A DNA stretch of 64,000 nt from Escherichia coli. GTDB taxonomy: Bacteria; Pseudomonadota; Gammaproteobacteria; Enterobacterales; Enterobacteriaceae. Position 1 is the first letter of the stretch, and every line of letters begins with the position of its first letter. The stretch lies in NCBI GenBank assembly GCA_031701365.1, contig GCA_031701365.1_4118.1, one strand, 5' to 3'. The position numbers were made by a program, and so were the translations under genes. Positions 4,392 to 43,539 of this stretch are shown one piece after another. A model generated the notes under the pieces. It ran no database searches and was not told the origin of the DNA. It saw only the letters and a program-made list of their open reading frames with translations.

Positions 4392-4588
4392 AAATGCGTA
4401 AATTAACCGAAAAAGAATATCAATCACTGTTACGTAAAAACTACGTAAAGATTTACAATACAGACACACACGTAGAACGAATGGAGTTATACCTTTTGAT
4501 TACATTGGGAACTAACTATCAGGATGCATGGGTGATTCAATATATGGATGCATTGAAAAATGAAATATTGTCCACGAGGAAACAATGA
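4388..4588 (+). CDS. family A small protein 2
   Basis: LGTNYQDAWV motif; ATGA overlap with upstream stop. Confidence 0.65.
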   Translation: MKMRKLTEKEYQSLLRKNYVKIYNTDTHVERMELYLLITLGTNYQDAWVIQYMDALKNEILSTRKQ

Positions 4589-4794: not shown

Positions 4795-5003
4795 TTATAT
4801 TAACACCTGAAGAATATAAGAAACGTTTTAAATCTGTCCAGGCTGAAATATTACTTATATACCTTTCAAATGCAGATCTTAACTTATCAAGGGTAATGGA
4901 GAAGGATTTACTTATGGGTGCATTTTTGGATACAGACTTTCAGGAGTATTATGTAGGAGAATACTTTATTGCACTTCAGAACCACATTAAGAGTAAACTA
5001 TGA
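4791..5003 (+). CDS. family A small protein 4
   Basis: LDTDFQEYYV..IKSKL. Confidence 0.65.
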   Translation: MIILTPEEYKKRFKSVQAEILLIYLSNADLNLSRVMEKDLLMGAFLDTDFQEYYVGEYFIALQNHIKSKL

Positions 5004-5215
5004 TTATTCTAGAAAAATCATATCAATATACTGAACGCATCGCTGCCAGACAACTTGAAATCCTCATAATATACGAAGAGACTTCTGATTTAAACTTAGC
5101 CGAGGTATTGGAAAATGAAATACTTTTGGGTGCATTCTTGGGAACAGACTATCAGGAGTATTATGAGGAAAAGTATTTGTCATCTCTTGAGAAATACGTC
5201 AGGAGCAAACTATGA
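5000..5215 (+). CDS. family A small protein 5
   Basis: LGTDYQEYYE..VRSKL. Confidence 0.65.
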   Translation: MIILEKSYQYTERIAARQLEILIIYEETSDLNLAEVLENEILLGAFLGTDYQEYYEEKYLSSLEKYVRSKL

Positions 5216-5439
5216 AACATTTAAGTAATATAGAGAAGAATAAAATTATCATTGCTGTAATAAACAAATATTTTACACTTCCACAAAAAGAATGTTTATC
5301 TATAAGGGAACACAGGATAAACACCACCGAGATTCGCATGTTGGCTGTACTGGGGACTAACTTCCAAGAAGGCTATGTTCATGAGCACATCGTTGCACTC
5401 ACTAATTACATAATGGACAAATGTAATGAACATCATTAA
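5212..5439 (+). CDS. family A small protein 6
   Basis: LGTNFQEGYV. Confidence 0.65.
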   Translation: MKHLSNIEKNKIIIAVINKYFTLPQKECLSIREHRINTTEIRMLAVLGTNFQEGYVHEHIVALTNYIMDKCNEHH

Positions 5440-5650
5440 TAACTTTGAATACGAGGCCCGTGCTAAGAGTGCCAGAAAAAAAGAGAACACCATTTACTTC
5501 ACTATGATGTACTTACAATGGACTGAGATTGAAGAAAAGGTTGCTGAAGTATGGATGTTGGAATTCATGGGGACGCAGTATCAGAATAGGTTTGCGGGTG
5601 AGTATATCAATGTTCTTATGAAACAAATAGAAAGAAAGGAAAAGAACTAA
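5426..5650 (+). CDS. family A small protein 7
   Basis: MGTQYQNRFA. Confidence 0.6.
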   Translation: MNIINNFEYEARAKSARKKENTIYFTMMYLQWTEIEEKVAEVWMLEFMGTQYQNRFAGEYINVLMKQIERKEKN

Positions 5651-5808
5651 TGGTTTTCATTAACATATCTGACCAACTCGATACTAAACTAAAAGTCGAG
5701 AAGAGTGAGGGATGGATGCTGTACTTTCTTGGAACTTCTCATCAGAATTTTTATATCCATGAACACATAGTTGCACTCACAAATCTAATAAGGGATAAAT
5801 GCAAATGA
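5650..5808 (+). CDS. family A small protein 8 (52 aa, not in ORF track)
   Basis: Hand-translated MVFINISDQLDTKLKVEKSEGWMLYFLGTSHQNFYIHEHIVALTNLIRDKCK; below track length cutoff. Confidence 0.55.
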   Translation: MVFINISDQLDTKLKVEKSEGWMLYFLGTSHQNFYIHEHIVALTNLIRDKCK

Positions 5809-6062
5809 AACACTTAACACAAGATGAATATTCACTTAGAATTCGAAAGCTCACCCCAGAAGCAAGAGTAATCTACGATGACGATGCACTTTCATGGAAC
5901 GAGATGAAAGTTAAAGTTCATGAGCTATGGTTGCTGTACTTTGTGGGAACCCAATATCAAGAGAAATATTGTACCGATTATCTTGAACAACTAATGGATC
6001 TTATACAGATAAAACTAAATGAACGAATTGTGGAAAAATATGAAAACTTTATCAAGCACTGA
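5799..6062 (+). CDS. family A small protein 9
   Basis: VGTQYQEKYC; C-terminal extension past usual IK.KL end. Confidence 0.6.
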   Translation: MQMKHLTQDEYSLRIRKLTPEARVIYDDDALSWNEMKVKVHELWLLYFVGTQYQEKYCTDYLEQLMDLIQIKLNERIVEKYENFIKH

Positions 6063-6291
6063 GTATCAAACTGCCCTCTTCTCCCTTCTAAACACTCTCC
6101 GCACGAACAATAAACTTTATAATTCCCGTGAAGCTGATATTGTCAACGGTGAACTTTATCTTATGAAATTCATTGGAACAAACTATCAAGATCTGTTCAT
6201 TCAACGATACCTGGCAGCATTGAGAAACGAAATATCAGATAAAACCCGCCAAGCCAGAAGAGAATGGAAGAAACAATGCGACAAAGACTAA
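6019..6291 (+). CDS. family A small protein 10
   Basis: IGTNYQDLFI; start uncertain (6019 or 6040). Confidence 0.55.
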   Translation: MNELWKNMKTLSSTEYQTALFSLLNTLRTNNKLYNSREADIVNGELYLMKFIGTNYQDLFIQRYLAALRNEISDKTRQARREWKKQCDKD

Positions 6292-6527
6292 ATCACAAAA
6301 TGTATTGTAAACTATTACAGAATCTGGGACAAAAACACTATGATACAGTATCTGAAATATTACCCTATGATATCATGCGTTTAATTCATAGTGAGGCAGA
6401 GATGCTTGTACTGATGACAGGCACTGATAAAACAGCAATTACCAAATCTATAGATATGTTCATCGATGCACACTGCCAACACATTAGAACCGAGATATGG
6501 AGACGTGAGAATGAAAATCCTGACTGA
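6264..6527 (+). CDS. family A-like small protein 11 (divergent)
   Basis: MTGTDKTAI in place of LGTNYQ; start uncertain. Confidence 0.45.
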   Translation: MEETMRQRLNHKMYCKLLQNLGQKHYDTVSEILPYDIMRLIHSEAEMLVLMTGTDKTAITKSIDMFIDAHCQHIRTEIWRRENENPD

Positions 6528-6726
6528 GCATGAGTATTACAATAGGTTAAGAACGATACAAGGAAAAGTCTCGTGGACTTTTTTAGATAATTCTATTGCA
6601 GAAGCGGACCGATGTGTTATAATAGCTGAAATGAAGCTATTACTCTTCATTGGGACAAACTATCAAAGTATCTACATAGACGCATGGTTAAGCAGCTTAC
6701 GTCTGAAGTCGGTGAGTTTAAAATGA
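6511..6726 (+). CDS. family A small protein 12
   Basis: IGTNYQSIYI; start ATG 6511 (MKILTEHEY). Confidence 0.6.
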   Translation: MKILTEHEYYNRLRTIQGKVSWTFLDNSIAEADRCVIIAEMKLLLFIGTNYQSIYIDAWLSSLRLKSVSLK

Positions 6727-6941
6727 GAAAATTAATAGGTTTCGAATATGTTAAGCTTCTACAAACCTGTGGAATCAGAAGGAGAATGATTCAAAAGGAT
6801 AAAAGAATTGCCGAAGAACGAAAGTATATAATGATAACTGAACTTTATGTCTTAACACTCTTAGGCACAAACTATCAACACACTTATGTAGACCTATGGA
6901 TCGATGCACTACAGAAAGAGGTTAAAAGTAAATGCAAATGA
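6723..6941 (+). CDS. family A small protein 13
   Basis: LGTNYQHTYV; ATGA overlap start 6723. Confidence 0.6.
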   Translation: MRKLIGFEYVKLLQTCGIRRRMIQKDKRIAEERKYIMITELYVLTLLGTNYQHTYVDLWIDALQKEVKSKCK

Positions 6942-7150
6942 TTAATTTAAGTAAAGACGAATTTTATGTTATACTGGCGAAAACTTATCCAGCACGTAAG
7001 GCCGTTTATGATAGTCACATTATTGAACCCTCAAAGAAGTTGATTTTAGTAAATGAGATAAAGATGCTTTCAGTCTTAGGAACAAACTATCAAGAGAATG
7101 CGGTACTGATGTTAATTGATGCCCTCCAGCGAGAGGTTAAACGTAAATGA
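6932..7150 (+). CDS. family A small protein 14
   Basis: LGTNYQENAV; N-terminus MQMINLSKDEF. Confidence 0.65.
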   Translation: MQMINLSKDEFYVILAKTYPARKAVYDSHIIEPSKKLILVNEIKMLSVLGTNYQENAVLMLIDALQREVKRK

Positions 7151-7392
7151 AAATGATTAATTTAACTTACCATGAATATCAAAAACGTTTAAATGCATCC
7201 AGAGATATAAGGATTCAAATATTCAATAACAAAAGATTGAAGCCTGATATCAGGAAAATCAAAATCATAGAAGCCGTGTTGTGCAACTTCCTAGGGACTA
7301 ACTATCAGGAAGGTAAGGTAGAAAACTATCTTATAGAACTCATGAATAGTATTGAAAATAAATGCGAGGATAATGATCATGAAAATGATTAA
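7147..7392 (+). CDS. family A small protein 15
   Basis: LGTNYQEGKV; N-terminus MKMINLTYHEY. Confidence 0.65.
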   Translation: MKMINLTYHEYQKRLNASRDIRIQIFNNKRLKPDIRKIKIIEAVLCNFLGTNYQEGKVENYLIELMNSIENKCEDNDHEND

Positions 7393-7642
7393 TTTAAGTA
7401 AAGATGAATATACCGAGCGTATGACAAAAAATACTCTTAAACGTAATACAATCTATCACAACCCAGAAATTCAACACAGTAAGAAAATGATTATGATACG
7501 TGAGTTAAAGATGGGTGTATTCTTAGGAACAAACTATCAAGAGATGGAAGTAAATCGCTTAATCGCGGAGTTACTAATGGAAATCAAAGGTAAGCTGTAC
7601 TTTTATCAAATGACCCGTCCACTAAGGTGTACTGATCGATGA
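7379..7642 (+). CDS. family A small protein 16
   Basis: LGTNYQEMEV; start 7379 (MKMINLSKDEY) by analogy with the junction at 7147. Confidence 0.6.
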   Translation: MKMINLSKDEYTERMTKNTLKRNTIYHNPEIQHSKKMIMIRELKMGVFLGTNYQEMEVNRLIAELLMEIKGKLYFYQMTRPLRCTDR

Positions 7643-7881
7643 ATATTGTGAATAACATCAGATTAGCAGAAAGATTTGATAGAATTGGGGAAGCACTGAG
7701 AAGATACGATAAAGAATATGGTCATTTGAGCTTTTCTATAGAAAAGAGATATGAACTTGAAGCAGAGTTTAAAATGCAGAGTCTCTTAGGCACACAGTAT
7801 CAAAACCAATATATTCAAACTTGGATTGATTGTTTAATCCAGACAATTTACGTAAGGAACATTAAATGCAAAATGAAATGA
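7639..7881 (+). CDS. family A small protein 17
   Basis: LGTQYQNQYI. Confidence 0.6.
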   Translation: MNIVNNIRLAERFDRIGEALRRYDKEYGHLSFSIEKRYELEAEFKMQSLLGTQYQNQYIQTWIDCLIQTIYVRNIKCKMK

Positions 7882-8111
7882 TATACTTAACATATAATGA
7901 ATACGTCGAGAGATTAGTTAGTGCCAAGAGATATACAAATCAACTTCCTCACAACCCAAACCAAACCCCAGAGGAAAAGAATGCGGAAGCTCTATTCCAA
8001 GCACTACCATACCTTCTTGGAACTGATAGGCAGGAGTATCACGTTGAACGTATAATTAAATCTCTTAAAATCACTATTAAGGAAAAGATACATGAAGCAC
8101 TTGACAGATGA
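7866..8111 (+). CDS. family A small protein 18
   Basis: LGTDRQEYHV. Confidence 0.6.
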   Translation: MQNEMIYLTYNEYVERLVSAKRYTNQLPHNPNQTPEEKNAEALFQALPYLLGTDRQEYHVERIIKSLKITIKEKIHEALDR

Positions 8112-8322
8112 TGAACATGGGCTTATAGTAATGGATGTAATCAACATCGAATACAAAAAGTTGATACGCTACCGTTGTTATGAAGATAAGCAACTAGTTC
8201 TAGCAGAACAGAAGTTGTTTCGACTCTTAAACACAAACTACCAAGCACAATACGAAGAATCGTATATGTACCTTTTGGCGAGGAAAGCAAAAAGAGATTA
8301 TGAAAATTTTAAGCAAAGGTGA
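8092..8322 (+). CDS. family A small protein 19
   Basis: LNTNYQAQYE. Confidence 0.6.
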   Translation: MKHLTDDEHGLIVMDVINIEYKKLIRYRCYEDKQLVLAEQKLFRLLNTNYQAQYEESYMYLLARKAKRDYENFKQR

Positions 8323-8521
8323 TTCAGTAATATTACTTATAGAGAGTTCAAGTAAATTCTTAAACATAACACTGTCTGATATAGATGAAGATGATAAAGA
8401 AGTACTGAGAGCAGATTTAAGAGTACTGTTGCATCTCGGAACAAACCTACAAGAAGAATATGTAGAGTACTACATTGATGAACTTAAAGAATCAGTACTG
8501 AGAAGATGCAAATGCGAATGA
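8300..8521 (+). CDS. family A small protein 20
   Basis: LGTNLQEEYV. Confidence 0.6.
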   Translation: MKILSKGDSVILLIESSSKFLNITLSDIDEDDKEVLRADLRVLLHLGTNLQEEYVEYYIDELKESVLRRCKCE

Positions 8522-8733
8522 TTACCGACGAAGAATACCTAACAATTATAAATGGATTGTTTTTGAAGTTGTTTGTTATTAACACATCAGATATACCAGA
8601 TATGGATAAAATTATTAAGAGAAATGAAATCTATGTTCTAGCTACCCTGGGAACTAACTATCAAGAATACGATATTAATGATTATATTAATACACTTAAA
8701 CGAGCGATTGAACTAAAATGCCAAAACCACTAG
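8506..8733 (+). CDS. family A small protein 21
   Basis: LGTNYQEYDI. Confidence 0.6.
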   Translation: MQMRMITDEEYLTIINGLFLKLFVINTSDIPDMDKIIKRNEIYVLATLGTNYQEYDINDYINTLKRAIELKCQNH

Positions 8734-8933
8734 GAACAGCAGAATACATTGAACTCATGGGATTACACTTCTCATCCTTTCAGAAACTTATGCGAGAATC
8801 AAAGAATGATTTAGAATATACCATCAGAGGTTCAGATTTAAGAATGCTTCTCACCCTAGACACAGATTCCCAAGAGCGTTTTGTCAATGAGCACATTAGA
8901 GCACTTTTAATGGAAATTAAAAGTAAACTATGA
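8718..8933 (+). CDS. family A small protein 22
   Basis: LDTDSQERFV..IKSKL. Confidence 0.6.
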   Translation: MPKPLGTAEYIELMGLHFSSFQKLMRESKNDLEYTIRGSDLRMLLTLDTDSQERFVNEHIRALLMEIKSKL

Positions 8934-9145
8934 AGATAATATCAAATCAAGAGTACTTGGCACTATTCAGAAAGAATAATCACAAATTTATGGCACTTGA
9001 TTCAAGAACTGATATAAGTGAACTTGAAAAAAATCTTTTGCGTTCAGAGATGATAGTACTGACACTCTTAGGAACACAGCATCAAGAAAGAACTGTTAAT
9101 TCACACATAGAAATACTTAAGAAGCTTATACAGGAAAAGTTATGA
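8930..9145 (+). CDS. family A small protein 23
   Basis: LGTQHQERTV. Confidence 0.6.
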   Translation: MKIISNQEYLALFRKNNHKFMALDSRTDISELEKNLLRSEMIVLTLLGTQHQERTVNSHIEILKKLIQEKL

Positions 9146-9363
9146 GAATCATAACACAACAAGATATTCTTAAGTTCACAAGGGTTCATGCATCTGAATT
9201 TGATGCTATATTATCAAAAAGTTACAACAACCCTTATACAGAAGATGTACACTACAATGAATTATGGATGTATATACTTTTAGGTACAGATCATCAAGAG
9301 CAAGCCGTACAGAGGTATTTGAGTGCTTTAAGTACTGCTACTGCTAATGGAGTATGTGTTTAA
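9142..9363 (+). CDS. family A small protein 24
   Basis: LGTDHQEQAV. Confidence 0.6.
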   Translation: MRIITQQDILKFTRVHASEFDAILSKSYNNPYTEDVHYNELWMYILLGTDHQEQAVQRYLSALSTATANGVCV

Positions 9364-9364
9364 T

Positions 9365-9607
9365 ATGAAAGTACTGACAGAATTAGAAATGTATCATAGA
9401 TTTAATAAGTACTATCATTTACTTAAACCTATACAGAGGATTAAGTGTCCCTTTGTAGTGAAACAGGTATTAATTTATGAGCATAAGTTATTTGTATCAT
9501 TAGGTACGAATGAACAAGAGTATTATTTGAAGTTGTACTTGATTACATTAATAGATTTAATTCACTATAAAACCAAACAAGCTAATAAAGAGAAATATGA
9601 AAACTAA
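9365..9607 (+). CDS. family A small protein 25
   Basis: LGTNEQEYYL; start ATG 9365 (MKVLTEL). Confidence 0.55.
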   Translation: MKVLTELEMYHRFNKYYHLLKPIQRIKCPFVVKQVLIYEHKLFVSLGTNEQEYYLKLYLITLIDLIHYKTKQANKEKYEN

Positions 9608-9941
9608 TATACAACTCAAGGTATATAAATCATTTGAACATACATATATCAAAAGTAGTCTATGTAGAGATGTAATGGATTACAAGGGTAAGCCATTCAC
9701 AATTACCTATGATTCTTATGTTAGTGATTTATATATATCATTTGTTAATTACGAAAATAAAATATACAAGCACGTTGATATTAAAGATTTAAGTACTTTA
9801 TCACCAGAGGAATACTTTCAGGAATCATTAGTATGGGATTTAGAGTTCCCTATGCCATTAGTACATAAGATGATAGTACTAATGAAAGAATCTAAACAGG
9901 AGCCTAATAGTGGTTATGAAGAACACATTATTGAGTATTAA
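9597..9941 (+). CDS. family B protein 1
   Basis: C-terminal EEYFQESLVWD. Confidence 0.6.
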   Translation: MKTNIQLKVYKSFEHTYIKSSLCRDVMDYKGKPFTITYDSYVSDLYISFVNYENKIYKHVDIKDLSTLSPEEYFQESLVWDLEFPMPLVHKMIVLMKESKQEPNSGYEEHIIEY

Positions 9942-9973
9942 GAGTTCTGATAGTACTGAGAGTACAAATGTTC

Positions 9974-10002
9974 TTGACAGTACTTTTCATTACTGATATA
10001 GT
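9974..10002 (+). promoter_or_regulatory. sigma70-like promoter
   Basis: -35 TTGACA 9974-9979, 17-bp spacer, -10 TATAGT 9997-10002. Confidence 0.45.
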
Positions 10003-10031
10003 GCACCAACGTTAATCATAGGGTACAGATT

Positions 10032-10277
10032 ATGTTAAAATTTTTAAATTTCCTTATCGTCTTGTGTATTGTTCTTGGAATTGCACCGTTTGTATTAGCG
10101 TATCTGGATTCAGATGAAATGCAGAAGATGAATTGCACAAAGACAGGACAGAGTAGAGAAGAGACGGTTATGATGCCTGTAACGGTTATTGTGAATAACA
10201 TACCAATTACGAACATGATTCCTACCCTAACGACAACGTACCAGTACTCTTGTACAGATGGAGAGAGGTGGAGATGA
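10032..10277 (+). CDS. hypothetical small membrane protein
   Basis: Hydrophobic N-terminal segment FLNFLIVLCIVLGIAPFVLAYL; weak RBS. Confidence 0.4.
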   Translation: MLKFLNFLIVLCIVLGIAPFVLAYLDSDEMQKMNCTKTGQSREETVMMPVTVIVNNIPITNMIPTLTTTYQYSCTDGERWR

Positions 10278-10594
10278 AATTTAATATAGCAAAAACATCT
10301 AATATATGTATATTTGGTTATGCCGAAGAGTTGGGTGATATTGACATTCTTTTGTACAAAAAGGATGGTGTTATGCATTTCAAGTACCAGGATGAAGAGG
10401 CAGACAATTATCCTTTACCTAATTTAGTACAAATGCAGGAAGAGGAATTATTCCAGTACAGCTTAGTATATGACATTGATATTTGCACGATGCCAGTACT
10501 AATTAATATTCAAAAAGTGATGCTCGATGTGTTTGATAGGCTAATACAAGGCACACAAGGAAGAACCATATATGTCAATGTACAAGACAATTAA
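10274..10594 (+). CDS. family B protein 2
   Basis: EELFQYSLVYD; start probably ATG 10274 (MKFNIAK). Confidence 0.6.
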   Translation: MKFNIAKTSNICIFGYAEELGDIDILLYKKDGVMHFKYQDEEADNYPLPNLVQMQEEELFQYSLVYDIDICTMPVLINIQKVMLDVFDRLIQGTQGRTIYVNVQDN

Positions 10595-10787
10595 TCAAGA
10601 ATGGAAGACCCAAAAGTACAGGGAATTCAGTACTAGTTTAACAAAAGATGCATTGAATTTAAAAAGAACAGAGTTTGATATGTTTATTTTTCTTGGAACA
10701 CGTTCCCAGGAACAATACATTCATTATTATATAAGTTCATTGCGAACGGAGATCGTATGCAAAACACAGGGTATTATAAAAAAGTAA
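10572..10787 (+). CDS. family A small protein 26 (displaced copy)
   Basis: LGTRSQEQYI. Confidence 0.55.
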   Translation: MSMYKTINQEWKTQKYREFSTSLTKDALNLKRTEFDMFIFLGTRSQEQYIHYYISSLRTEIVCKTQGIIKK

Positions 10788-11023
10788 ACCAATATTTGTA
10801 CGCTACAAAGTACAGGGATTTTTGTTTAAAGGGTGGTGATGAAGATTTTTCTTTGCGATTATCAGAATTTAATCTGTTATTTTATCTTGGTACATCGGAA
10901 CAAGAAGAAATGGCACAGAAATTTATCAAGCACCTTGAACAAAAAATTCATATGCAAATTTTGATGCTTAAGGTACATAATGAGATAAACAAATATGAAC
11001 CCAACAATAGTACAGGATCTTAA
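10757..11023 (+). CDS. family A small protein 27 (displaced copy)
   Basis: LGTSEQEEMA. Confidence 0.5.
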   Translation: MQNTGYYKKVNQYLYATKYRDFCLKGGDEDFSLRLSEFNLLFYLGTSEQEEMAQKFIKHLEQKIHMQILMLKVHNEINKYEPNNSTGS

Positions 11024-11384
11024 ACAAGTAATATTCCTTTTGAATACAAGAAGTGAAATGTATACAGAGTTTAAAGAGATTAATGCATTTTATCAGAATT
11101 TTGTAATTCAAGAGTTCAGTGATTTAATTACAGATGCATTATTTGAATTATCGGAAAAATACAAAGGAACAGAGTTCAGTGTTAAGAATGTATTACGTTC
11201 TTTATCAAAGCGTATAATAAAATTAGATCATTTTACATTTGACAATAAAGATTTATTCAGTCACAATCCAAGTACAGCTTTATATTTTATTCCTGATTCA
11301 GACAAAAATCATCCTATTCATTACGGATGGATTTTGTCGTACATAGTACAAGGAAAGGAGTATCCTATTAAATGGAACGATTAG
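10995..11384 (+). CDS. family B-like protein 3 (divergent)
   Basis: AFYQNFVIQE variant motif; placement in family tentative. Confidence 0.45.
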   Translation: MNPTIVQDLKQVIFLLNTRSEMYTEFKEINAFYQNFVIQEFSDLITDALFELSEKYKGTEFSVKNVLRSLSKRIIKLDHFTFDNKDLFSHNPSTALYFIPDSDKNHPIHYGWILSYIVQGKEYPIKWND

Positions 11385-11741
11385 GGCGATTAGATTATTA
11401 CACAATTAATACAAATTATTTGTTGCGTAATATAAAATCCGATTACAAAATATGGATAAAGAACAGAGATAGTATGTGTTATGAATTTTATTTAGATTAT
11501 GCCATCAAACGCTTTTTAAGAGAAGAACATTAATGCACACACCGCACAAAGAGCACACAGAGCACAAAAATACAAAAACGATAAATGTTTTAAATGATTC
11601 TTTATTGGTGAGTATAAATTTATATTATAAAATTCATTTAAATGGTGGTATTGAAAATTTTAGTTATTATTTGAGTACAATATCGCAAGAGCATTTAATA
11701 TACCAAGATCATTTATTGCACCCGAATCCATAAGGCGAATT

Positions 11742-12287
11742 ATGAATGAGATAGAATTATTAGCACACAAGATTAGTACAATAATGCTTATCCTAAATAA
11801 CAACCATCCTATATCGCAGATAGATGGAATCCTGAGTCAGAGGACAGGTGGTAGTTTATATTTGACATTAACAGAGGTTATCGCAAGGAATTACATTGAT
11901 ATTGAAATCGAGAACAGTGATGCATCAGGAAAGGTTGATGTAGGTGCATTAATCAGTTCAAATCCAGTATCAGCATCCCCATTGACCAAAGGTGTTAGTA
12001 CAGGATTCGAAGGGTATTTGTGGTACAATACCAATGATGATTATTTTATATATCAGCATTCCAATACAAATTATGATGAAGACAAATTTCAGTTCATAGA
12101 CCCTTATGATGAAGCTGAAGTATTTCAAAAATCATTAATCACAAAACCGCATGAGATGATGTATCTAATGTTATTCAGTACAATGCATTTGAATCCATTA
12201 ATTAAAGGTTTAAAATTTTATATTCAATTGAAATTAGTCCATGTAGTTTATGATTTATTAATGCAAGGATATAGTTATGAAGTATAA
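11742..12287 (+). CDS. family B protein 4
   Basis: AEVFQKSLITK. Confidence 0.6.
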   Translation: MNEIELLAHKISTIMLILNNNHPISQIDGILSQRTGGSLYLTLTEVIARNYIDIEIENSDASGKVDVGALISSNPVSASPLTKGVSTGFEGYLWYNTNDDYFIYQHSNTNYDEDKFQFIDPYDEAEVFQKSLITKPHEMMYLMLFSTMHLNPLIKGLKFYIQLKLVHVVYDLLMQGYSYEV

Positions 12288-12588
12288 AATGATGTATACC
12301 CCAGATATGATTTATGTTGAATTAGAAGATGATGACGATGGGTGGAATTTGATTTATTCAAGAAGTTCAGGTTGGTACATGGCACATTTAAATGATTCGA
12401 TAGTTACAGATTATTTTGTAGATTTCAATACATTATCCGATGAAGAATTGTTCCAACAGCAATTAGTAATTGACACGGGTGGTTATGATGTTTTATTATT
12501 AAAAAAGATACAGAAAGCTGTTATTGATTTTAAGCCCAAGATGTTGCAAAGGAAATATTATGACCTCGAAGTACCGTACCAGCAATGA
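12277..12588 (+). CDS. family B protein 5
   Basis: EELFQQQLVID. Confidence 0.6.
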   Translation: MKYKMMYTPDMIYVELEDDDDGWNLIYSRSSGWYMAHLNDSIVTDYFVDFNTLSDEELFQQQLVIDTGGYDVLLLKKIQKAVIDFKPKMLQRKYYDLEVPYQQ

Positions 12589-13126
12589 AATTCAGTACAC
12601 CTACGCTAATGCAATCATTATGGGACAAAAGTTAGCTTGTATTGTTGCAGCCTTATATAATGCCCAGAAATATCACAAGCGTCATTTCCACAAATGTATT
12701 GGTATTATTCCATCGAAGTACAATACATATATTGCGTGCACGAGTCATTTTGATAAACGATTCAATACACCTGATACCCCAAATGCCAGTAGTGTTATTG
12801 GTCTTTTGGATTTCGCACCTGGTGCTGTTATTGGAAAGAATGATTTAGAGTACGCATGGTATAATAAAAATGCACCGTTAGTAATGGTAAAATATGATAC
12901 AGAAACGAACAAAACAATAGAGTACAATACATATAAATCAGAGGAAGAATTTTTCCAAGGTTCATTGCTTGTGCCAGTGCGTTTGTTGTTTTATAATGTC
13001 CTTATTAGTACAGTACACAATAGTCCATTACACAAGAATCACAAAATTAATTTCAATTTTTGTGCTTATGCGATTGATGGTGTGTATGAGTGTTTAATGG
13101 AGGTATTGAGTTATGAAGCTGAATAA
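12560..13126 (+). CDS. family B protein 6
   Basis: EEFFQGSLLVP; start ATG 12560 after AAAGGA. Confidence 0.6.
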   Translation: MTSKYRTSNEIQYTYANAIIMGQKLACIVAALYNAQKYHKRHFHKCIGIIPSKYNTYIACTSHFDKRFNTPDTPNASSVIGLLDFAPGAVIGKNDLEYAWYNKNAPLVMVKYDTETNKTIEYNTYKSEEEFFQGSLLVPVRLLFYNVLISTVHNSPLHKNHKINFNFCAYAIDGVYECLMEVLSYEAE

Positions 13127-13454
13127 TACATTTGATATTAATAAGTTAAGAGAATGGTTTTATAGTATTGAAATTGAAGCCATCCCGTATCATAGATATG
13201 AACAATATAATTTAACCAGTATTGATATCAGTGAGTTGTACGCGTATTATCAAAGTGCATTAGAGATGCATAAGTTATTTTTGAGTACAGATTTTGTTCT
13301 AAATTACAATTTTGAGGAATTTAATAATTATAATTTAGTACAGAAATATGTAGTAGCAAAGTATATGTACCTTCAAGGAATTACAAGTAATTTGGAATTC
13401 AATACAGTCCTTGCTTTAGTTGAGGTAATTTTATGCAGTACATGTATGATTTAG
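13113..13454 (+). CDS. family B-like protein 7 (divergent)
   Basis: YAYYQSALEMH variant. Confidence 0.45.
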   Translation: MKLNNTFDINKLREWFYSIEIEAIPYHRYEQYNLTSIDISELYAYYQSALEMHKLFLSTDFVLNYNFEEFNNYNLVQKYVVAKYMYLQGITSNLEFNTVLALVEVILCSTCMI

Positions 13455-13939
13455 AGTTTAGTTTAGATGCTGCCTTTAAATTTGTTCACAAGATAGAAAC
13501 AATATACAGTACATTATGTGCAATAAAATCAGTAACAGAAGAGCTTGATGTTGGTGAAAAATATCAGGTATGGAATAATACATTTCTAAACAAAGAACGT
13601 TGCTCTACGGGGTTTAATATTTTAACATTTAATCCCAGCAATTGTTACCCAGAGAAGCATGAACGTTATCCGAATGACGACATGTGGTTTGATTACACAA
13701 AAGATGGTGATATGTCATCCCTTGTAGTTCCTGATGATTTTAATGCCGAAGATTTAACGGAAGAGTGGTGGTTTCAACAGAATTTAGTACACGATGATAT
13801 TGATTTATTTTTTTATGTAGTATTTAAAATGCTTTACCACAACAATATATTAAAAGATAGTGTGTTTTTTTCATGTCTATATATTGATGATTTGTACAAT
13901 GAAATCCAAATCAACATACCCAGAACGCCTGTATCGTAA
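13433..13939 (+). CDS. family B protein 8
   Basis: EEWWFQQNLVHD. Confidence 0.6.
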   Translation: MQYMYDLEFSLDAAFKFVHKIETIYSTLCAIKSVTEELDVGEKYQVWNNTFLNKERCSTGFNILTFNPSNCYPEKHERYPNDDMWFDYTKDGDMSSLVVPDDFNAEDLTEEWWFQQNLVHDDIDLFFYVVFKMLYHNNILKDSVFFSCLYIDDLYNEIQINIPRTPVS

Positions 13940-13964
13940 GATATGGGCTTTTTTCGTTTTGGTA

Positions 13965-13993
13965 TTGACAAAGAAGTGCAAAGCTGTTATCAT
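13965..13993 (+). promoter_or_regulatory. sigma70-like promoter
   Basis: -35 TTGACA 13965-13970, 17-bp spacer, -10 TATCAT. Confidence 0.4.
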
Positions 13994-14021
13994 GTGTAAT
14001 CATTTTAAAGGAGAACATATA

Positions 14022-14534
14022 GTGAGTTTCATAATCCCAAGTACATACGAAGATGCATCAAGTGCAGTTCATAAGATTCATTATATTTTTAATTTAATTA
14101 TTAGATCTGCAAAAATTAAAATGTATGCACCTCTTGTGACAAATAATCGAAATGAAGAAATTTTTATTAGCACAGACAAAATTATTTTTCCATATTTCAA
14201 TGAAGATAGATTGTGGTTCATACATTTAGCTGCATTACAAAAATATAAGATGTCAATTCGTAATAATTTGGATATACCGTTATATCATCCTGATATTGGA
14301 GAGGATGAATATTTTCAGTACAGTACAGTACACCGCCATGAAGATATCTTTGTTGCTATGCTTATTGCTAAATTGAATACCGTTGATTTGGAGCAGTACA
14401 AATACAATAATAAATCATGTAAGATCATAATCCCTGCATTCATAGCTCTTTATGATTATGTGGTGCATAACAAAAAAGATGATACATATGCTTTCAATGA
14501 AGAGTATTTGAATTTTTTTAAGGAGAACATATGA
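14022..14534 (+). CDS. family B protein 9 (GTG start)
   Basis: DEYFQYSTVHR; AAAGGAG RBS 8 nt upstream of in-frame GTG 14022; ORF track gives 13860. Confidence 0.55.
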   Translation: MSFIIPSTYEDASSAVHKIHYIFNLIIRSAKIKMYAPLVTNNRNEEIFISTDKIIFPYFNEDRLWFIHLAALQKYKMSIRNNLDIPLYHPDIGEDEYFQYSTVHRHEDIFVAMLIAKLNTVDLEQYKYNNKSCKIIIPAFIALYDYVVHNKKDDTYAFNEEYLNFFKENI

Positions 14535-15058
14535 GCAGTGAAGTGCTGAAATCAATGACATTCAATGAAATTGGTACATTTAAAGATAAGATCATTGATT
14601 GCATTGAATACATGATTTGTAGTAATATCGAAAGTATCGAGATATTTAACAAGACAAATCGCTCTTACCATATGATGTACATTGCAAACAATAATGGTAT
14701 CATTCCATTTATTTCGGATAGTACAATATGGTACGCATGTGATACGAAAAAAACCACAATAGGTTTACATTCATTTGAGACACATTATGATCTAATTATT
14801 CCTGAACATTGTATGCAAGAAGAAGAATATTTTCAAATGCAATGTATACATTCACCATTAGTGTTGTTTAGTTTATATATTATACCTTATATCACCAAAT
14901 GTGTTCATGAGAATAAAGCTCCGTGGAATCATGAATTTGTATCGTTGAAGTTATTGTATAATGTATTAGTAGAATATTATGATTACAGGCACAATGGTAC
15001 AATCAGTGATGTATGGGATTTTGAATCGCTAAGGGTGAAAACATACACAGGTGAATGA
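14531..15058 (+). CDS. family B protein 10
   Basis: EEYFQMQCIHS; AAGGAG RBS. Confidence 0.6.
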   Translation: MSSEVLKSMTFNEIGTFKDKIIDCIEYMICSNIESIEIFNKTNRSYHMMYIANNNGIIPFISDSTIWYACDTKKTTIGLHSFETHYDLIIPEHCMQEEEYFQMQCIHSPLVLFSLYIIPYITKCVHENKAPWNHEFVSLKLLYNVLVEYYDYRHNGTISDVWDFESLRVKTYTGE

Positions 15059-15674
15059 TATGACCAGAATTAAAATGTATGATTTGATGCAGTACAGTAA
15101 AATTGCCATTCCAGTGCTTAATAAAGTGCTGGATGCATTCATTGCCAAATACCCTGAGAATTCAGTGTTATGTATTCCATTTAGTGTTCCAGATAAAGAT
15201 GATATATTCCAAGTGAATGTCAGTACACGTGGTATTACATTGCAGCAGAAATACATGGATACGGAATATTATGGAATAAAGTTGGATTCAGTACAGGGTT
15301 CAAAATCAGCCTATGATTTTTTTGTTCCTAATAACATCGAGTCATGGGAAACAAACATTTCAAAGAAAGATGAAAATGATGTTCCTATTAGTGGTGTGTT
15401 CAACAATAAAGTTTTTTATTATTACGAAACCGACAAATTCCCTGAAGAGTTATATTACAATTCAGAAATGAATGAAGATGTAGATGCATTCATGTTTCAA
15501 TTATCTTTAGTACATGATATCATTGATGTTCAAGAGTTAAGAGCAGAAATCAATTTAGCTAAAGAGTTATCGGACATGCTGCCACCGTTTAGTATGCTTT
15601 TTTGTGAAGGAGGTTATTTTTCAAAAGAAGTGTTTGAACATTTCGTAGATGTTGTAAAAGGGTTGGATATATAG
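15051..15674 (+). CDS. family B protein 11
   Basis: DAFMFQLSLVHD. Confidence 0.6.
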   Translation: MNDMTRIKMYDLMQYSKIAIPVLNKVLDAFIAKYPENSVLCIPFSVPDKDDIFQVNVSTRGITLQQKYMDTEYYGIKLDSVQGSKSAYDFFVPNNIESWETNISKKDENDVPISGVFNNKVFYYYETDKFPEELYYNSEMNEDVDAFMFQLSLVHDIIDVQELRAEINLAKELSDMLPPFSMLFCEGGYFSKEVFEHFVDVVKGLDI

Positions 15675-15675
15675 T

Positions 15676-15870
15676 ATGCTTATAATTGATATTAAACAAA
15701 AATACCGTAAGTTTGATTGGTTCACCGATAGTTTCCAGCTTGAATTATTACATATGAATATCAGTGAAACATTATGTGCAGAAACACAAGATGAATTTGA
15801 TGATAGAGTGATGAACATAGTAATGCTTTCTTGCTTTAAACATTTTGGTTATTTTTTCGGGCAGAATTGA
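15676..15870 (+). CDS. hypothetical small protein (weak family B-like FQLELL)
   Basis: 64-aa ORF; ATGA-type junction. Confidence 0.4.
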   Translation: MLIIDIKQKYRKFDWFTDSFQLELLHMNISETLCAETQDEFDDRVMNIVMLSCFKHFGYFFGQN

Positions 15871-15877
15871 GGTAAAA

Positions 15878-16393
15878 ATGCATCAACACAAGCATCATTC
15901 ATATGATTTTGCAATTAACATTATGAAGTTTATTCGAGCGTTGGAGGATGGGAAGCTTAGTCATAAGTACAGGAAAGAGGGTAACAATTGGTTCAGAAAT
16001 GATTCCGAGTTCAGTTGTCATAAAATCGTGTATAGTAATCAGTACAGTGCCAATTACCTACAAGATGTAGTGATGTGTTTTGAATACGTGTTGCAGTTCA
16101 GGGGTTCAATCCAAGATGAGTTGATGGAGAACATGTACATCCGATACCTTCCAATGCTCAAAGATGAAAATGTATTATTAAATTCAATATATCAACGAGT
16201 TCGTGAAATAGAGTGCAGGGATATATTAGATACAGAAGAATCGTATTTCCAGCAATCCCTGATTTATTCACCTGATTTATTACAGGTACATAATTTGTTT
16301 AATACATTACGTCAGAACATCAGTACAGACATATTTTTGTCATTATCGGATTATGATACATTTGTCAAAGATTTAGAGGAAATAGGTTTATGA
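15878..16393 (+). CDS. family B protein 12
   Basis: ESYFQQSLIYS; start ATG 15878 after GAGG. Confidence 0.6.
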   Translation: MHQHKHHSYDFAINIMKFIRALEDGKLSHKYRKEGNNWFRNDSEFSCHKIVYSNQYSANYLQDVVMCFEYVLQFRGSIQDELMENMYIRYLPMLKDENVLLNSIYQRVREIECRDILDTEESYFQQSLIYSPDLLQVHNLFNTLRQNISTDIFLSLSDYDTFVKDLEEIGL

Positions 16394-16734
16394 GTAGATT
16401 TTCAGTTTATATAGTAAACGTCAGTAAAGATGGTAGTTTAATTGAATTTGATGTAGTTGATAACAATGATAATTCATATGGTATTAAGGTACAGGACAAT
16501 GATGTGCAGTTCAGTACAAGAACAAATTTTGAAAATCCAGTCCAAGTTCCTAATTTCATAGAAGATGAAGCAGCACGTTTCCAATACGAAACGGCATATG
16601 ACAATGTACATATGCATATTATTATGCAAACGAGTTTAGTTCAATTAGTTCCTTTGTTCAGACAAAATATATATGTACATGAAGTGTCGATTAATGGCAT
16701 TCAAAGTTCCGTTTTGTTCGATACAAATATGTAA
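16390..16734 (+). CDS. family B protein 13
   Basis: AARFQYETAYD. Confidence 0.55.
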   Translation: MSRFSVYIVNVSKDGSLIEFDVVDNNDNSYGIKVQDNDVQFSTRTNFENPVQVPNFIEDEAARFQYETAYDNVHMHIIMQTSLVQLVPLFRQNIYVHEVSINGIQSSVLFDTNM

Positions 16735-16744
16735 GGAAAGTACA

Positions 16745-17296
16745 ATGAGTTCAATGAGTTTATTAGATACATTAGAAAAAGACAGAAGTGCAATTAAGCG
16801 TTTAAAAGAGCAAGTACAAAAGATTGTATACAACGTTGATAAGTTTGAGGTTCCCGGAAGATTTGGTGATATTTCCCATACGGAGATCAAATCCCTTAAG
16901 TCAGATTTGTTGATTAAAAATAAAAATGGGTTGATTTTAGTTTTGAGTTCAGATATGATGGGGGCAACACATAGTTATAATGCCGTATCGGTGCGTTCCG
17001 AGTGTGAAGGTATATATCTATCACAGGGTTTCAATAGCGAGACACAGGTTTGTTTTTGTGATGCAGTACATGACCCTATGAAGTTCACGAGAAGTGAAGC
17101 CCAAGCGTTATTAGAGCTATCAGACGAGAGTTTGTTTCAGTACAGTACAATGTATGACAATGATAAGATTCGTTGTATGTACGCTGTAAAGCATTATACA
17201 CAGGAGTTTTCTGGATTTGCATACCTTTTAGTTAGAACCAATACCAGATATATTGATATGTTAGAAGATTACATCGATAAAGTTGTTAATGTATGA
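16745..17296 (+). CDS. family B protein 14
   Basis: ESLFQYSTMYD; start ATG 16745 after AAGGA. Confidence 0.6.
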   Translation: MSSMSLLDTLEKDRSAIKRLKEQVQKIVYNVDKFEVPGRFGDISHTEIKSLKSDLLIKNKNGLILVLSSDMMGATHSYNAVSVRSECEGIYLSQGFNSETQVCFCDAVHDPMKFTRSEAQALLELSDESLFQYSTMYDNDKIRCMYAVKHYTQEFSGFAYLLVRTNTRYIDMLEDYIDKVVNV

Positions 17297-17308
17297 TTTT
17301 GTGATGGG

Positions 17309-17488
17309 ATGATGCTAATGAAAGAGTTATTTGAAGATCAGTTCAATACATATGTGGATAATATTCTTTATTCCAGTCGTGCCAGTCAACGAGGAAATCG
17401 TGCTTACAATATTGATTACCTATTAGTGGTGCTGAGTTCACAGTACACCAATGCGGTACAAAGGGTTTATTATGAAAAGTGCAAGTAA
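17309..17488 (+). CDS. hypothetical small protein (59 aa, not in ORF track)
   Basis: Hand-translated MMLMKELFEDQF...VYYEKCK. Confidence 0.35.
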   Translation: MMLMKELFEDQFNTYVDNILYSSRASQRGNRAYNIDYLLVVLSSQYTNAVQRVYYEKCK

Positions 17489-17681
17489 TAGTGATATTGC
17501 AAAGGAGAAGTTTAAGTGCAGTTTAGATTACGGTTTAAATAATTTTCTTACATGCACAATGTACAGGGATGATGATTATGAACAATCCGTAATTTCGTTG
17601 CACAGATATTTCGAAATAATTTACGCAAGATATCTTAGAAGGTTAGATGGGATAGGGGATTGGAATTATGATTACGTTTGA
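17472..17681 (+). CDS. hypothetical small protein
   Basis: ORF 17451-17681; likely start ATG 17472. Confidence 0.4.
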   Translation: MKSASNSDIAKEKFKCSLDYGLNNFLTCTMYRDDDYEQSVISLHRYFEIIYARYLRRLDGIGDWNYDYV

Positions 17682-17892
17682 AGAGCCGGAAGTGGTATAT
17701 TGCTTTAGTGTGAAAGGTTTTGAATACATGATGGATTCGATTTTGAAGGATACATATTTGGTTCAGATTGCAGTTGCACATAATGCAGATAATGCATTAC
17801 AGCGAGTATTGAATATATACGAGAGGACGAGTCGAAGGCTTTGTGCAATGAAAAGGATTGAAGAAATAAAGGTTTCTAGGCTGAATAAATAG
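17668..17892 (+). CDS. hypothetical small protein
   Basis: ORF only. Confidence 0.4.
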   Translation: MITFEEPEVVYCFSVKGFEYMMDSILKDTYLVQIAVAHNADNALQRVLNIYERTSRRLCAMKRIEEIKVSRLNK

Positions 17893-18090
17893 AGACGTTT
17901 CATTTTGACAGGCCGCTGGAGGGGGTCAAAAAAATTTCCGCTGAAAAACATGCTAAGGTATATGTTTAATATAAAGTTTTATATTGTGTTTTTCAGAGTA
18001 CAGTTCATGTTTCCTTAAACAAAAAATACCCCGCCACCGAACGTGCTCTTTATATTGGAGTTTACCTTATTAATTATAGTAGAGATTGAG

Positions 18091-18468
18091 ATGGAAATAA
18101 AATATAATGAATTTTGTGCAAGGACATGGATGTACACTGGTGAGTTAGTTACGCACTCTAACTTATACAAGGGTGATTTAAACTACGCTAGGGACAAGAT
18201 TTTAAAGTACTGGAATGCTGACTTTTATTTGATGGATTTTAGTACTGGGTTTAGGGGTAAAGCAACCGAGATGTTGGACTATACAGTACTTGATGATGCT
18301 GCACTGTTTCAGGCGGCATTAGTATTTGATAAGAAGTACATCTGTACATTAGAAGAGATGATTGAATTACAGCGTAGAATTAAATGTATTCACAGGGAAT
18401 GTATAGATATCTGGTGCAGTACTGGTGAAGATGATTTTTGTAATCATTTCAATCTAGGGGAAGAGTGA
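18091..18468 (+). CDS. family B protein 15
   Basis: AALFQAALVFDKKYICTLEE; start ATG 18091. Confidence 0.6.
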   Translation: MEIKYNEFCARTWMYTGELVTHSNLYKGDLNYARDKILKYWNADFYLMDFSTGFRGKATEMLDYTVLDDAALFQAALVFDKKYICTLEEMIELQRRIKCIHRECIDIWCSTGEDDFCNHFNLGEE

Positions 18469-40952: not shown

Positions 40953-40981
40953 GACAAATGATAAGTTAATGATATAATATA

Positions 40982-41015
40982 AGGTGACAACATAATATGT
41001 TAGTCACCTTTTTTA
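40982..41015 (+). terminator. rho-independent terminator
   Basis: AGGTGAC-loop-GTCACCT followed by TTTTTT. Confidence 0.65.
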
Positions 41016-41629
41016 ATCCTGAAAGGTTCCCATAAGGAAATGATTAAAAGCCTAATCCACTCGAAAATGTAGAGGGTAGATGAGTAGTCCTTTCAGTACG
41101 AACAGCAGATGAAACCCGTTAGATGATGGCATAGTTTGAACCACTCACGGCAATGCGGCTGTATAAAGAACTCCAATAGGATAAAGAGAGTTCCTCGATA
41201 GACATATAAGGATCGCACCTTACCAATTATCTAAGGGAGATTTCATAAGAAATATGCGGTCGGAATTATACAATATAGTTGCGTCCAAATTTTGTGAAAT
41301 CAAATACAAGTACTGGTCATATGGTATTTGTATTATGTGTCGGGATGTTTAAGACCGACGACCGTTGCTACAAGAACCGCGATAGAGAGAAACAGAGCAA
41401 CCCGCTTTCGTCTCGTAAGAGAATTCGTGATATGAACTATGTGAAGGCCACCAGCGTCAAATTTTTTTGTTCTTTCCCCTGCGGGGGGATGAAATATGCT
41501 CAAGCAAACCCCGTCAATATTAATTAAAAGAAAATAGTACTTGTAGAATTAAACATGCGTAGCATGATAATTCTACTGATGTTGATGCAATCAACGTCAC
41601 GTATATTCATTGATGTTTCCATAGGAATA

Positions 41630-42175
41630 ATGATGGCATTTATTAGAAAAGAAAAAACTGTTACTTATAAAACTTTGAATTTTGATGATTGCATTAATCA
41701 ATCACAAGACGAAGATATCTTTACTGGATATGTGGTTATTAAAGAAAAAGGATGCATTTCTTATATAAAGGAATTACAAAATGGAATTGAAGTGACTTCA
41801 GTTAAATTACTTCCTACTCAAAAACCAACAATATCAAAAGCCCAGTATGGTAATTATTTTGAAGAAAGATATAGTAATAATTCAATAAGTGTTAAGGCTC
41901 ATATTATTAAAGGAGAACTAGAAGGAGAATATAGAAAATACAACCCACAAGGAAAATGTGTTTGGGTTAAATACTTCAATTCAGGATATGATGTAACATC
42001 TGAAATTATAGAATTCTTGGGTTTAAAATGTACCCCTGAGACTATTCATGATTACAAGTTCAATACTGAAGAAGAGTTTAATCTGATGATGCGTTACGGT
42101 TCACATTTTAAATTTTTATATGAATATAACATTGACAGTAGTACTTTTGATAAGATAGTACACAACTGTCTCTAA
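41630..42175 (+). CDS. hypothetical protein, possibly MORN-repeat-like
   Basis: ORF 41555-42175, start ATG 41630 after AGGA; repeats such as GEYRKYNPQGKCVWVKYFNSG. Confidence 0.45.
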   Translation: MMAFIRKEKTVTYKTLNFDDCINQSQDEDIFTGYVVIKEKGCISYIKELQNGIEVTSVKLLPTQKPTISKAQYGNYFEERYSNNSISVKAHIIKGELEGEYRKYNPQGKCVWVKYFNSGYDVTSEIIEFLGLKCTPETIHDYKFNTEEEFNLMMRYGSHFKFLYEYNIDSSTFDKIVHNCL

Positions 42176-42191
42176 CAAAAGGAATTATATA

Positions 42192-42713
42192 ATGTCGAAG
42201 AAGGATGCTTCGAAAAAACATTCAGTACATTTCAGTACTGGAAAGGACAACTGGACAACTCCCAAAGATTTCTTTGAAGATTTGGATGAGTTATGGGGAT
42301 TTACACTTGATGCTGCTTGTGTTGATGAGACTGCATTGTGTGATAACTATTTTACACCTGATGATAATTCTCTTGAACAAGACTGGGGAAAAAATATTGT
42401 TTGGTTAAATCCCCCATATAGTGATTTAAAAACTTGGTTAGCCAAGGCAGTAGATGCGTATAATAAAGGTGCTACAGTACTGATTCTAGTACCATCCAGG
42501 ACTGATACAATAGCATTTCAGGAATATGCAGCCAAAATATGTGATTGTATTTGTTTTATCAAAGGTAGATTACGTTTTGGTATTCCAGAAGAACCTGATA
42601 AGAAAACAGATTCAGCACCATTTCCTTCGTGTCTTATAGTCCTTGATAAGTACCTCACTACTGCTAAAATTAATTATCTTAAATCTCTCGGATTGGTGAT
42701 GAAGAATCTATGA
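42192..42713 (+). CDS. phage Dam-type DNA N6-adenine methyltransferase
   Basis: DNWTTP, FTLDAAC and NPPYS motifs typical of the small phage N6-adenine MTase family. Confidence 0.75.
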   Translation: MSKKDASKKHSVHFSTGKDNWTTPKDFFEDLDELWGFTLDAACVDETALCDNYFTPDDNSLEQDWGKNIVWLNPPYSDLKTWLAKAVDAYNKGATVLILVPSRTDTIAFQEYAAKICDCICFIKGRLRFGIPEEPDKKTDSAPFPSCLIVLDKYLTTAKINYLKSLGLVMKNL

Positions 42714-43243
42714 AAGAAACATGTGTATTAACGTTTGGTCGTATTAATCCTGTACATCGTGGACATGGTTTAGTTTTTGAAAAGGCCAAAACATTACAAG
42801 AACAGTACAATGCTGATTTAAAAATATATCTAAGCACCAGTACTGACAATATAAAAAACCCACTCCCACCTGAACTAAAAATGTATTATACAGAGGGATT
42901 CTATCCTTCAGTGCAAGAGAACATCTACACAGAAGACAATCTATTTGATATAATGAGAGAACTGGATGGAAAGTACTTAGATGTTCTTTTCATTTGTGGT
43001 TCTGACCGTATTGATTCTTTTCAAAAAACTCTTGACATGTACAATGGTAAGTTGTATAATTTTTGTAGTATAAAAGCAATTCAGGCAGGTATTGACCGTA
43101 ATGTAAGTCAATATAGCTCAACACAAATGCGTAACTTCGCAAAAAATGAAGATTTTGATAGTTTTCGTGAGTTTTTACCTGGAAATGACGAGGACTTAAA
43201 AATACAATTATTTGAAGACGTTATAAAATACATGAGGAAATAA
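42710..43243 (+). CDS. HxGH-motif nucleotidyltransferase (adenylyl/cytidylyltransferase-like)
   Basis: N-terminal TFGRINPVHRGH (HxGH); about 177 aa. Confidence 0.6.
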   Translation: MKETCVLTFGRINPVHRGHGLVFEKAKTLQEQYNADLKIYLSTSTDNIKNPLPPELKMYYTEGFYPSVQENIYTEDNLFDIMRELDGKYLDVLFICGSDRIDSFQKTLDMYNGKLYNFCSIKAIQAGIDRNVSQYSSTQMRNFAKNEDFDSFREFLPGNDEDLKIQLFEDVIKYMRK

Positions 43244-43245: not shown

Positions 43246-43539
43246 ATGTCAGTACTGTTCAAAACCAATCCAGTACTTTGGGATCAAAATGAGCAATCAG
43301 GATTTCGTTCCATCCATGTTGAATACAAAGGTAATACTGTAGTTGCAATTATTGCTAACAAAACTCTAGGAAACTGGACTGCACAGGTTGTTCCTATGGG
43401 ATATTCTTACACATCTGATGAGGTACAATTCTTGGCTGAACTATATCGCCAAGTGCCGTTTATCATTAATGTACTAGAAGGTAATGATACATTATCACAT
43501 GCAGATGTGATTAATTTTCTTGGAAACTTGCATGTGTGA
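43246..43539 (+). CDS. hypothetical protein
   Basis: ORF only. Confidence 0.55.
   Translation: MSVLFKTNPVLWDQNEQSGFRSIHVEYKGNTVVAIIANKTLGNWTAQVVPMGYSYTSDEVQFLAELYRQVPFIINVLEGNDTLSHADVINFLGNLHV

Follow-up and report, generated by a model that had tools for sequence, protein, structure and literature searches.

Overlapping genes for a predicted adenine methyltransferase and a HIGH-motif nucleotidyltransferase in an Asteriusvirus jumbo phage: most likely two core genes packed in an operon

The phage and the gene pair

On sequence grounds, the window (the whole stretch of 64,000 nucleotides analysed here) comes from an Asteriusvirus jumbo myovirus, a coliphage of a kind with genomes of ~350 kb; the 3-kb stretch around the two genes under study shows 97.9% identity to the Escherichia phages 121Q, G17, Sharanji and phAPEC6. 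The original prediction held that a Dam-type adenine methyltransferase (MTase) is translationally coupled here to a nucleotidyltransferase (NTase) immediately downstream, and as far as the genes themselves are concerned it is borne out. Both open reading frames lie on the + strand where it had placed them, with a shared ATGA, and every motif that it had quoted (DNWTTP, LDAAC and NPPYS in the first ORF, GRINPVHRGH in the second) is found. The gene identities likewise stand, as a PF05869 adenine methyltransferase (Pfam E = 6.6e-32) and a HIGH-motif nucleotidyltransferase (PHROG 3041, “cytidyltransferase”, E = 8.5e-58). The features of the locus are as follows.

41555..42175, + strand: upstream co-oriented gene, phrog_16210 (a family with no assigned function), in synteny with the pair across the clade
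42178-42183, + strand: Shine-Dalgarno-like AAAGGA ahead of the MTase ORF
42192..42713, + strand: N6-adenine methyltransferase ORF, 173 aa, PF05869; equivalent to 121Q gp417
42246-42263, + strand: MTase motif DNWTTP, aa 19-24
42306-42320, + strand: MTase motif LDAAC, aa 39-43
42408-42422, + strand: MTase motif NPPYS, aa 73-77
42710..42713, + strand: ATGA stop/start overlap of the MTase and NTase ORFs, read from the sequence
42710..43243, + strand: HIGH-superfamily nucleotidyltransferase ORF, 177 aa, phage “cytitidyltransferase” family; equivalent to 121Q gp418
42737-42766, + strand: NTase motif GRINPVHRGH (HxGH), aa 10-19
43112-43132, + strand: second NTase superfamily motif, YSSTQMR (SxTxxR), aa 135-141
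43246..43539, + strand: downstream co-oriented gene, phrog_14956 (a family with no assigned function), syntenic with the pair

Both genes are already known, the same labels being found in dozens of GenBank records. They are annotated in 121Q (gp417, “DNA methyltransferase”; gp418, “cytidyltransferase”), phAPEC6 (gp394c and gp393c, respectively), PBECO4, RaK2 and others. The closest phage records match the MTase at no more than 94.8% identity and the NTase at 100% (phage slurp01), a contrast that suggests either that the MTase evolves faster or that a recombination boundary falls at the junction.

The methyltransferase

The MTase is a single-domain protein that scores 110.9 bits against Pfam PF05869 (Dam; cut-off 28.1) across positions 7-149 of the 169-position profile, and it also matches PHROG 111. 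Catalytic motif IV, (D/N)PPY, is present as NPPY at residues 73-76. In an alignment of 26 family sequences the protein has 25 of the 25 invariant columns, which include W21, T23, P24, D40, the NPPY of residues 73-76, P101/R103/D105/T106, G125/R126/F129 and the APF.S of residues 142-146. Because all of the family-invariant residues are kept, the enzyme is probably catalytically active. Searching the PDB by sequence, whether with the single sequence or with a profile, found no solved structure for it.

No endonuclease or specificity gene was found beside the MTase: the ~12 flanking genes, at 33.9-44.4 kb, contain no Pfam domain above cut-off, the PHROG families of those scanned have no assigned function, and the annotations of relatives offer only hypothetical proteins there. 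A further MTase or a partner was also sought among the genes upstream, which gave no Pfam match. The MTase is an orphan, with no sign of a restriction-modification system among the genes scanned. It is not the only kind of MTase in such phages: genomes of the Asteriusvirus type have others, C5-cytosine enzymes among them (PMC7247149, PMC11895373). Virion DNA of RaK2 has been described, as data not shown, as being cut only by methylation-insensitive enzymes (PMC3622015), and the Asteriusvirus genome papers go no further than “protective methylation”. Two candidate relatives were set aside: Hia5/Hin1523, considered as non-specific PF05869 MTases, are of the Dam/DpnM type with FxGxG and DPPY (Drozdz et al., PMC3299994), and M.EcoGIX is a plasmid-borne, single-strand-specific MTase rather than a PF05869 member.

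The nucleotidyltransferase

The marks of the HIGH-motif superfamily, namely the HxGH and SxTxxR motifs and a Rossmann-like fold, are all found in the NTase, the fold in a predicted model with a pLDDT of 86.9. Conserved across its family are GRxNPxH/TxGH, KNPL, GSDR and SSTxxR. Against Pfam PF01467 (CTP_transf_like) it reaches 17.3 bits, below the cut-off of 21 that homologues from GAP32 (27.4 bits) and a cyanophage (27.5 bits) pass.

As to what the enzyme might act on, the comparisons point in two directions at once. Foldseek places PPAT and NadD at the top for the model (TM ~0.6, 13-18% identity), with NadM-type NMNATs also among the leading fold matches. The family profile finds NadR-type NMNAT, PPAT and NadD in the PDB at E values of 3e-4 to 2e-3, NadR-type NMNAT being the best at 3.4e-4; the single sequence finds no match there. 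The NTase is equidistant from PPAT and NMNAT, and it fails every curated NMNAT, FAD-synthetase and cytidylyltransferase model (for example, 19.8 bits against a cut-off of 112.45 for TIGR00482, and 15.3 against 150 for NF000840). No specific similarity to GCT/CCT (TagD/CCT type) over adenylyltransferases was found, and the public label “cytitidyltransferase” is an inherited annotation. For two relatives, CBB and GAP32, separate genes for NMNAT, Nampt and PnuC have been reported at other places in the genome (PMC5259590), which lowers the odds of an NMNAT role. Taken together, the separate NMNATs and Nampt of relatives and the lack of a curated NMNAT/PPAT match make any substrate for this NTase a guess.

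These data bear on one way of giving the two genes familiar roles, in which the MTase is a T1-type Dam acting on GATC and the NTase replenishes NAD+ during infection as an NMN/NaMN adenylyltransferase, whether for salvage or to offset NAD-depleting defences, with neither tied to the AGTACT signal described below. The NadR-type best match, the NadD and NadM-type NMNATs among the top folds, and a layout of GxxxPxHxGH ... G(S)DR ... SSTxxR that resembles NadD/NMNAT all argue for the second half of this account, as do family members fused to P-loop kinases (see below), which recall NadR. However, the NTase falls far below every curated NMNAT model, PPAT fits it equally well, and relatives already have the separate NAD genes just mentioned. 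For the first half, the phage T1 enzyme belongs to the same Pfam and TIGRFAM family, but GATC occurs in the window at half the expected frequency (108 sites observed versus 219 expected), the host Dam already methylates GATC, and the likeness to T1 Dam is partial (see the last section). We regard this combination of roles as decidedly unlikely.

The NTase family is large. It comprises 3419 representative clusters, mostly of longer multidomain proteins, and is present in 566 phage records, ~460 of them T4-like cyanophages. Some members are fused to Zeta-toxin/AAA_33 P-loop kinases. Its recurrent neighbour is DUF6267, found in 42 NTase-family loci. In most of these it directly precedes the NTase, and in three the two are fused into a single ORF. 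This linkage is seen in T4-like cyanophages and marine phages (loci L007, L008 and L010-L089), with examples at the following positions.

L018:2723-4549: DUF6267-NTase linkage
L074:2747-4552: DUF6267-NTase linkage
L070:40-1890: DUF6267-NTase linkage

DUF6267 is absent from the window, and tblastn of enterobacterial jumbo phages found none. Its invariant KxDG and its PEGYV motif recall ligases, a resemblance that neither a PDB profile search nor hhalign against phage DNA ligase (probability 0.2) supported. Literature searches for “cytitidyltransferase” and DUF6267 found nothing.

Linkage of the two genes

From the overlap and the pairing, the original prediction had proposed a DNA-modification or nucleotide-metabolism module, and this part of it is not supported by comparison. 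When ORFs were mapped greedily along the window, overlaps of the 4-bp type occurred at 28 of the 139 same-strand junctions; in the annotation of 121Q, 14 of 34 junctions in the surrounding 15 kb overlap, five of them by 4 bp. A 4-bp overlap is therefore ordinary here, indeed the most frequent kind of junction. Nor is the junction constant. The MTase and NTase genes overlap by 8 bp in 7t3 and by 4 bp in RCIP0023; they are separated by a 3-nt gap in GAP32, by 8 nt in fHe-Yen9-04 (where the NTase has its own ribosome-binding site) and by 21 nt in CBB, and in XaC1 four genes have been inserted between them.

Outside the RaK2/CBB-like jumbo clade, the two were never found together, in 0 of 80 and 0 of 79 loci. 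No PF05869 gene lies within 4 kb of the NTase homologue at any of 80 IMG/VR loci; conversely, an NTase lies within 3 kb of a PF05869 MTase at one of 80 loci, and that sole case, a 358-kb contig, itself falls in the clade. In PA5oct-like phages, cyanophages and DLP_6, which have the NTase, no MTase is adjacent to it. Among the best 150 NTase-family representatives, ten of them domain-scanned, no MTase-NTase fusion was seen. Neither a linkage that recurs in independent lineages nor a fusion, either of which would mark a dedicated module, was thus found. Within the clade, adjacency or near-adjacency has been kept over deep divergence, the NTase of GAP32 being only 39% identical; this speaks against independent roles, but synteny of the whole region explains it, a functional link being less probable.

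What was called a translationally coupled module is therefore most likely no more than the dense packing usual in an operon, the two core genes being independent of one another. On balance, and with modest confidence, we favour the account in which a DNA adenine MTase and an ATP-using nucleotidyltransferase are vertically inherited core genes of RaK2/CBB/121Q-like phages with separate jobs. What is shown is the family of each protein, its intact motifs and its fold, together with how the genes are distributed and that they are unlinked beyond the clade. The two sit side by side in a long, dense, co-directional operon and would function independently. The MTase, having no partner endonuclease, would transfer a methyl group from AdoMet to the N6 of adenine in replicating phage DNA; that DNA is its substrate is something we infer, from the T1 relative and, indirectly, from the resistance described for RaK2 virion DNA. 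The NTase would use ATP to adenylylate a small phosphorylated metabolite with release of pyrophosphate, the leading guess for this small-molecule acceptor being NMN/NaMN-like or phosphopantetheine-like.

The AGTACT signal

The hexamer AGTACT, to which the original prediction had tentatively related the MTase, is indeed enriched: the window holds 200 sites where 17.2 +/- 4.2 (and up to ~22) are expected, a 9-12-fold excess. Coding sites are spread over the three frames (78/40/63) and further sites fall in non-coding DNA, so the signal is one at the DNA level. The preferred context is C-AGTACT-G. GTAC is raised ~2.7-fold, as are WGTACW variants, while GATC and most other palindromes are depleted. 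Four sites lie inside the gene pair (42234, 42476, 42839 and 42972), where ~0.3 would be expected in 1052 bp, and another stands at 43251, just past the NTase stop.

The sites are unevenly laid out. Two blocks, 3965-8400 and 10635-18205, are free of AGTACT. In the second, AGTACA occurs 39 times on the + strand, against ~3 expected, and NGTACT never; in the first the sole form is TGTACT (8 sites), which reads AGTACA on the - strand. The 2.2-kb centre between them, 8401-10634, has the densest palindromic AGTACT (16 sites). From these polar blocks, the enriched unit looks to be a strand-specific (C)AGTAC that points away from the 2.2-kb centre. As 37 of the 39 AGTACA sites are kept in 121Q, the block is natural. 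No origin-like switch in GC skew was found between the two polar blocks.

The enrichment, at 9-13-fold, extends to all sampled RaK2/CBB-like phages, namely 121Q, phAPEC6, 7t3, RCIP0023, GAP32, XaC1, fHe-Yen9-04 and three metagenomic contigs (the enriched sample being the window plus loci L001-L005, L090, L091, L093, L173 and L174). The hosts of these phages are Escherichia, Salmonella, Klebsiella, Cronobacter, Yersinia and Xanthomonas. None was seen in one PA5oct-like locus, a cyanophage, DLP_6 or T1, and a literature search found no mention of AGTACT in jumbo phages.

Could the MTase be the writer of this clade-wide signal? It would then methylate adenine in (C)AGTAC, the methylated site being read in some phage process (marking of self versus non-self, packaging or transcription, for example), and the NTase would be unrelated. 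The size of a signal that acts on DNA, and the two adenines that AGTACT holds on each strand, fit such a role. So does the distribution, in that every sampled lineage enriched in AGTACT has this MTase clade, while in the sister PA5oct-like group the one locus sampled is unenriched and the MTase is missing from at least 8 of the 11 Pseudomonas records. Those same records have the NTase, which therefore is not tied to AGTACT. All of the positives, however, belong to one clade, so that the co-distribution of MTase and AGTACT amounts to a single phylogenetic event and not an independent correlation, and many other clade-specific genes co-distribute equally well. More distant MTases do not carry the signal with them: a locus whose MTase is 46% identical shows only 2.5-fold AGTACT, and 79 loci with MTases of 37-49% identity are depleted (35 sites observed versus ~111 expected). 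Methylation alone would not explain why sites become enriched, and these phages have C5-cytosine and other MTases as well. A writer role for this MTase is, in our estimate, rather unlikely.

A non-coding element and an RNA-repair block nearby

Two genes upstream of the MTase, in a 600-bp gap, lies a ~480-nt non-coding element (41042-41518, + strand), with two features close by.

40968-40978: extended -10
40983-41015: terminator hairpin

Every RaK2/CBB-like locus long enough to include this position has one copy of the element there, in the same orientation (nhmmer E 1e-86 to 1e-135), while the proteins flanking it are only 39-67% identical across loci. RNAalifold predicts 74 pairs, of which 35 have compensatory changes. 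Paired cells make up 94% versus 81% in shuffled alignments, and changes on both sides of a pair number 35 against 15.6 +/- 2.6 in shuffles (0/500) and 7-12 in slid controls. Scans of the neighbourhood and the element with Rfam, tRNA and tmRNA models gave no match. The element is a candidate for a new large structured RNA. On the other side of the pair, from ~50.0 kb onward, the syntenic block includes a T4-type RNA ligase 1 (121Q gp438); in the relatives L090, L091 and L175 it also has an HD-domain protein and a polynucleotide kinase/phosphatase (PNKP), so that the neighbourhood is RNA-repair themed.

An RNA substrate has been raised for enzymes of this kind. The fold of the window MTase resembles the methyltransferase domain of PCIF1/CAPAM (PDB 6irx), and Iyer et al. 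(2021) singled out AMM43637.1, a small “DAM”, as the nearest to PCIF1 and raised RNA as a speculative substrate (PMC7824862). That protein is CBB_72, the orthologue of the window MTase, and is followed by CBB_73, the orthologous “cytitidyltransferase”. One could thus imagine an RNA-directed pair, in which a PCIF1-like MTase acts on RNA adenine and the NTase on the 5' end of the same RNA or on a cap-type nucleotide cofactor. Against this, T1 Dam shows the family to methylate DNA, and the 173-aa MTase has no counterpart of the helical cap-binding domain of PCIF1. The NTase family, moreover, is abundant in phages that have neither this MTase nor the non-coding element, and synteny alone accounts for the neighbourhood. 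We consider the RNA-directed pair very improbable. A more elaborate form, in which the NTase builds or remodels a cofactor-type RNA 5' end and the MTase N6-methylates the adjacent adenosine, with the 41042-41518 element as possible target within the RNA-themed block, is an extreme long shot.

Significance

The pairing of the two genes matters little, since both were already labelled and their adjacency is clade synteny. The locus keeps some residual value. The NTase belongs to a very large family that most T4-like cyanophages carry. For the conserved AGTAC(T) signal of RaK2-like jumbo phages, which is striking and seems not to have been described before, the MTase is the first candidate as writer, and its PCIF1-like predicted fold keeps alive the published suggestion of an RNA m6A enzyme in bacterial viruses. 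More interesting than the pair are the anatomy and conservation of AGTAC(T) and the covarying ~480-nt element at 41042-41518.

Comparison with known systems

The closest characterised relative of the MTase is encoded by phage T1. The T1 gene ST20 (237 aa, “DNA methyltransferase”) belongs firmly to this family, and we take its product to be T1 Dam (M.EcoT1Dam), which Schneider-Scherzer and colleagues reportedly characterised in 1990 as a GATC DNA methylase. The two share PF05869, the DxWxTP, LD and NPPY motifs and the strand motifs that follow, and both are orphan phage enzymes. Identity reaches 32%, though over the catalytic N-terminal 105 aa only; T1 Dam extends further at the N terminus and differs in its C-terminal part, whereas a loop peculiar to its clade follows GRLxF in the 173-aa window MTase, which also has the C-terminal tail LTxxK...LKSLG. 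Against the NCBIfam equivalog TIGR01712 (cut-off 97.05 bits), ST20 scores 238.1 bits and the window MTase 92.7. Given these differences in size, C-terminal part and equivalog score, the GATC specificity of T1 is not transferable to the window MTase, which counts against a T1-type Dam role.

The likeness to PCIF1, a eukaryotic cap-adjacent m6Am RNA methyltransferase, is one of fold, with an identity of only 16%. The catalytic motif of PCIF1 is NPPF; that of the window MTase is NPPY. The helical cap-binding domain of PCIF1 is missing from the window MTase, and the host, unlike the setting of PCIF1, has no m7G caps.

For the NTase, the cellular enzymes of reference are NadD/NadM/NadR and CoaD, to which it is 13-19% identical and from both types of which the family-specific KNPL and GSDR are absent. 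Its true kin are the “cytitidyltransferases” of cyanophages and T4-like marine phages (S-RIM8 SXDG_00170, Syn9 gp184; PHROG 395/3041), members of the same family with 32-39% identity over the whole 177 aa. Unlike the window NTase, the cyanophage proteins are usually 380-1100 aa long with extra domains, and they stand beside or are fused to DUF6267, never beside a PF05869 MTase.
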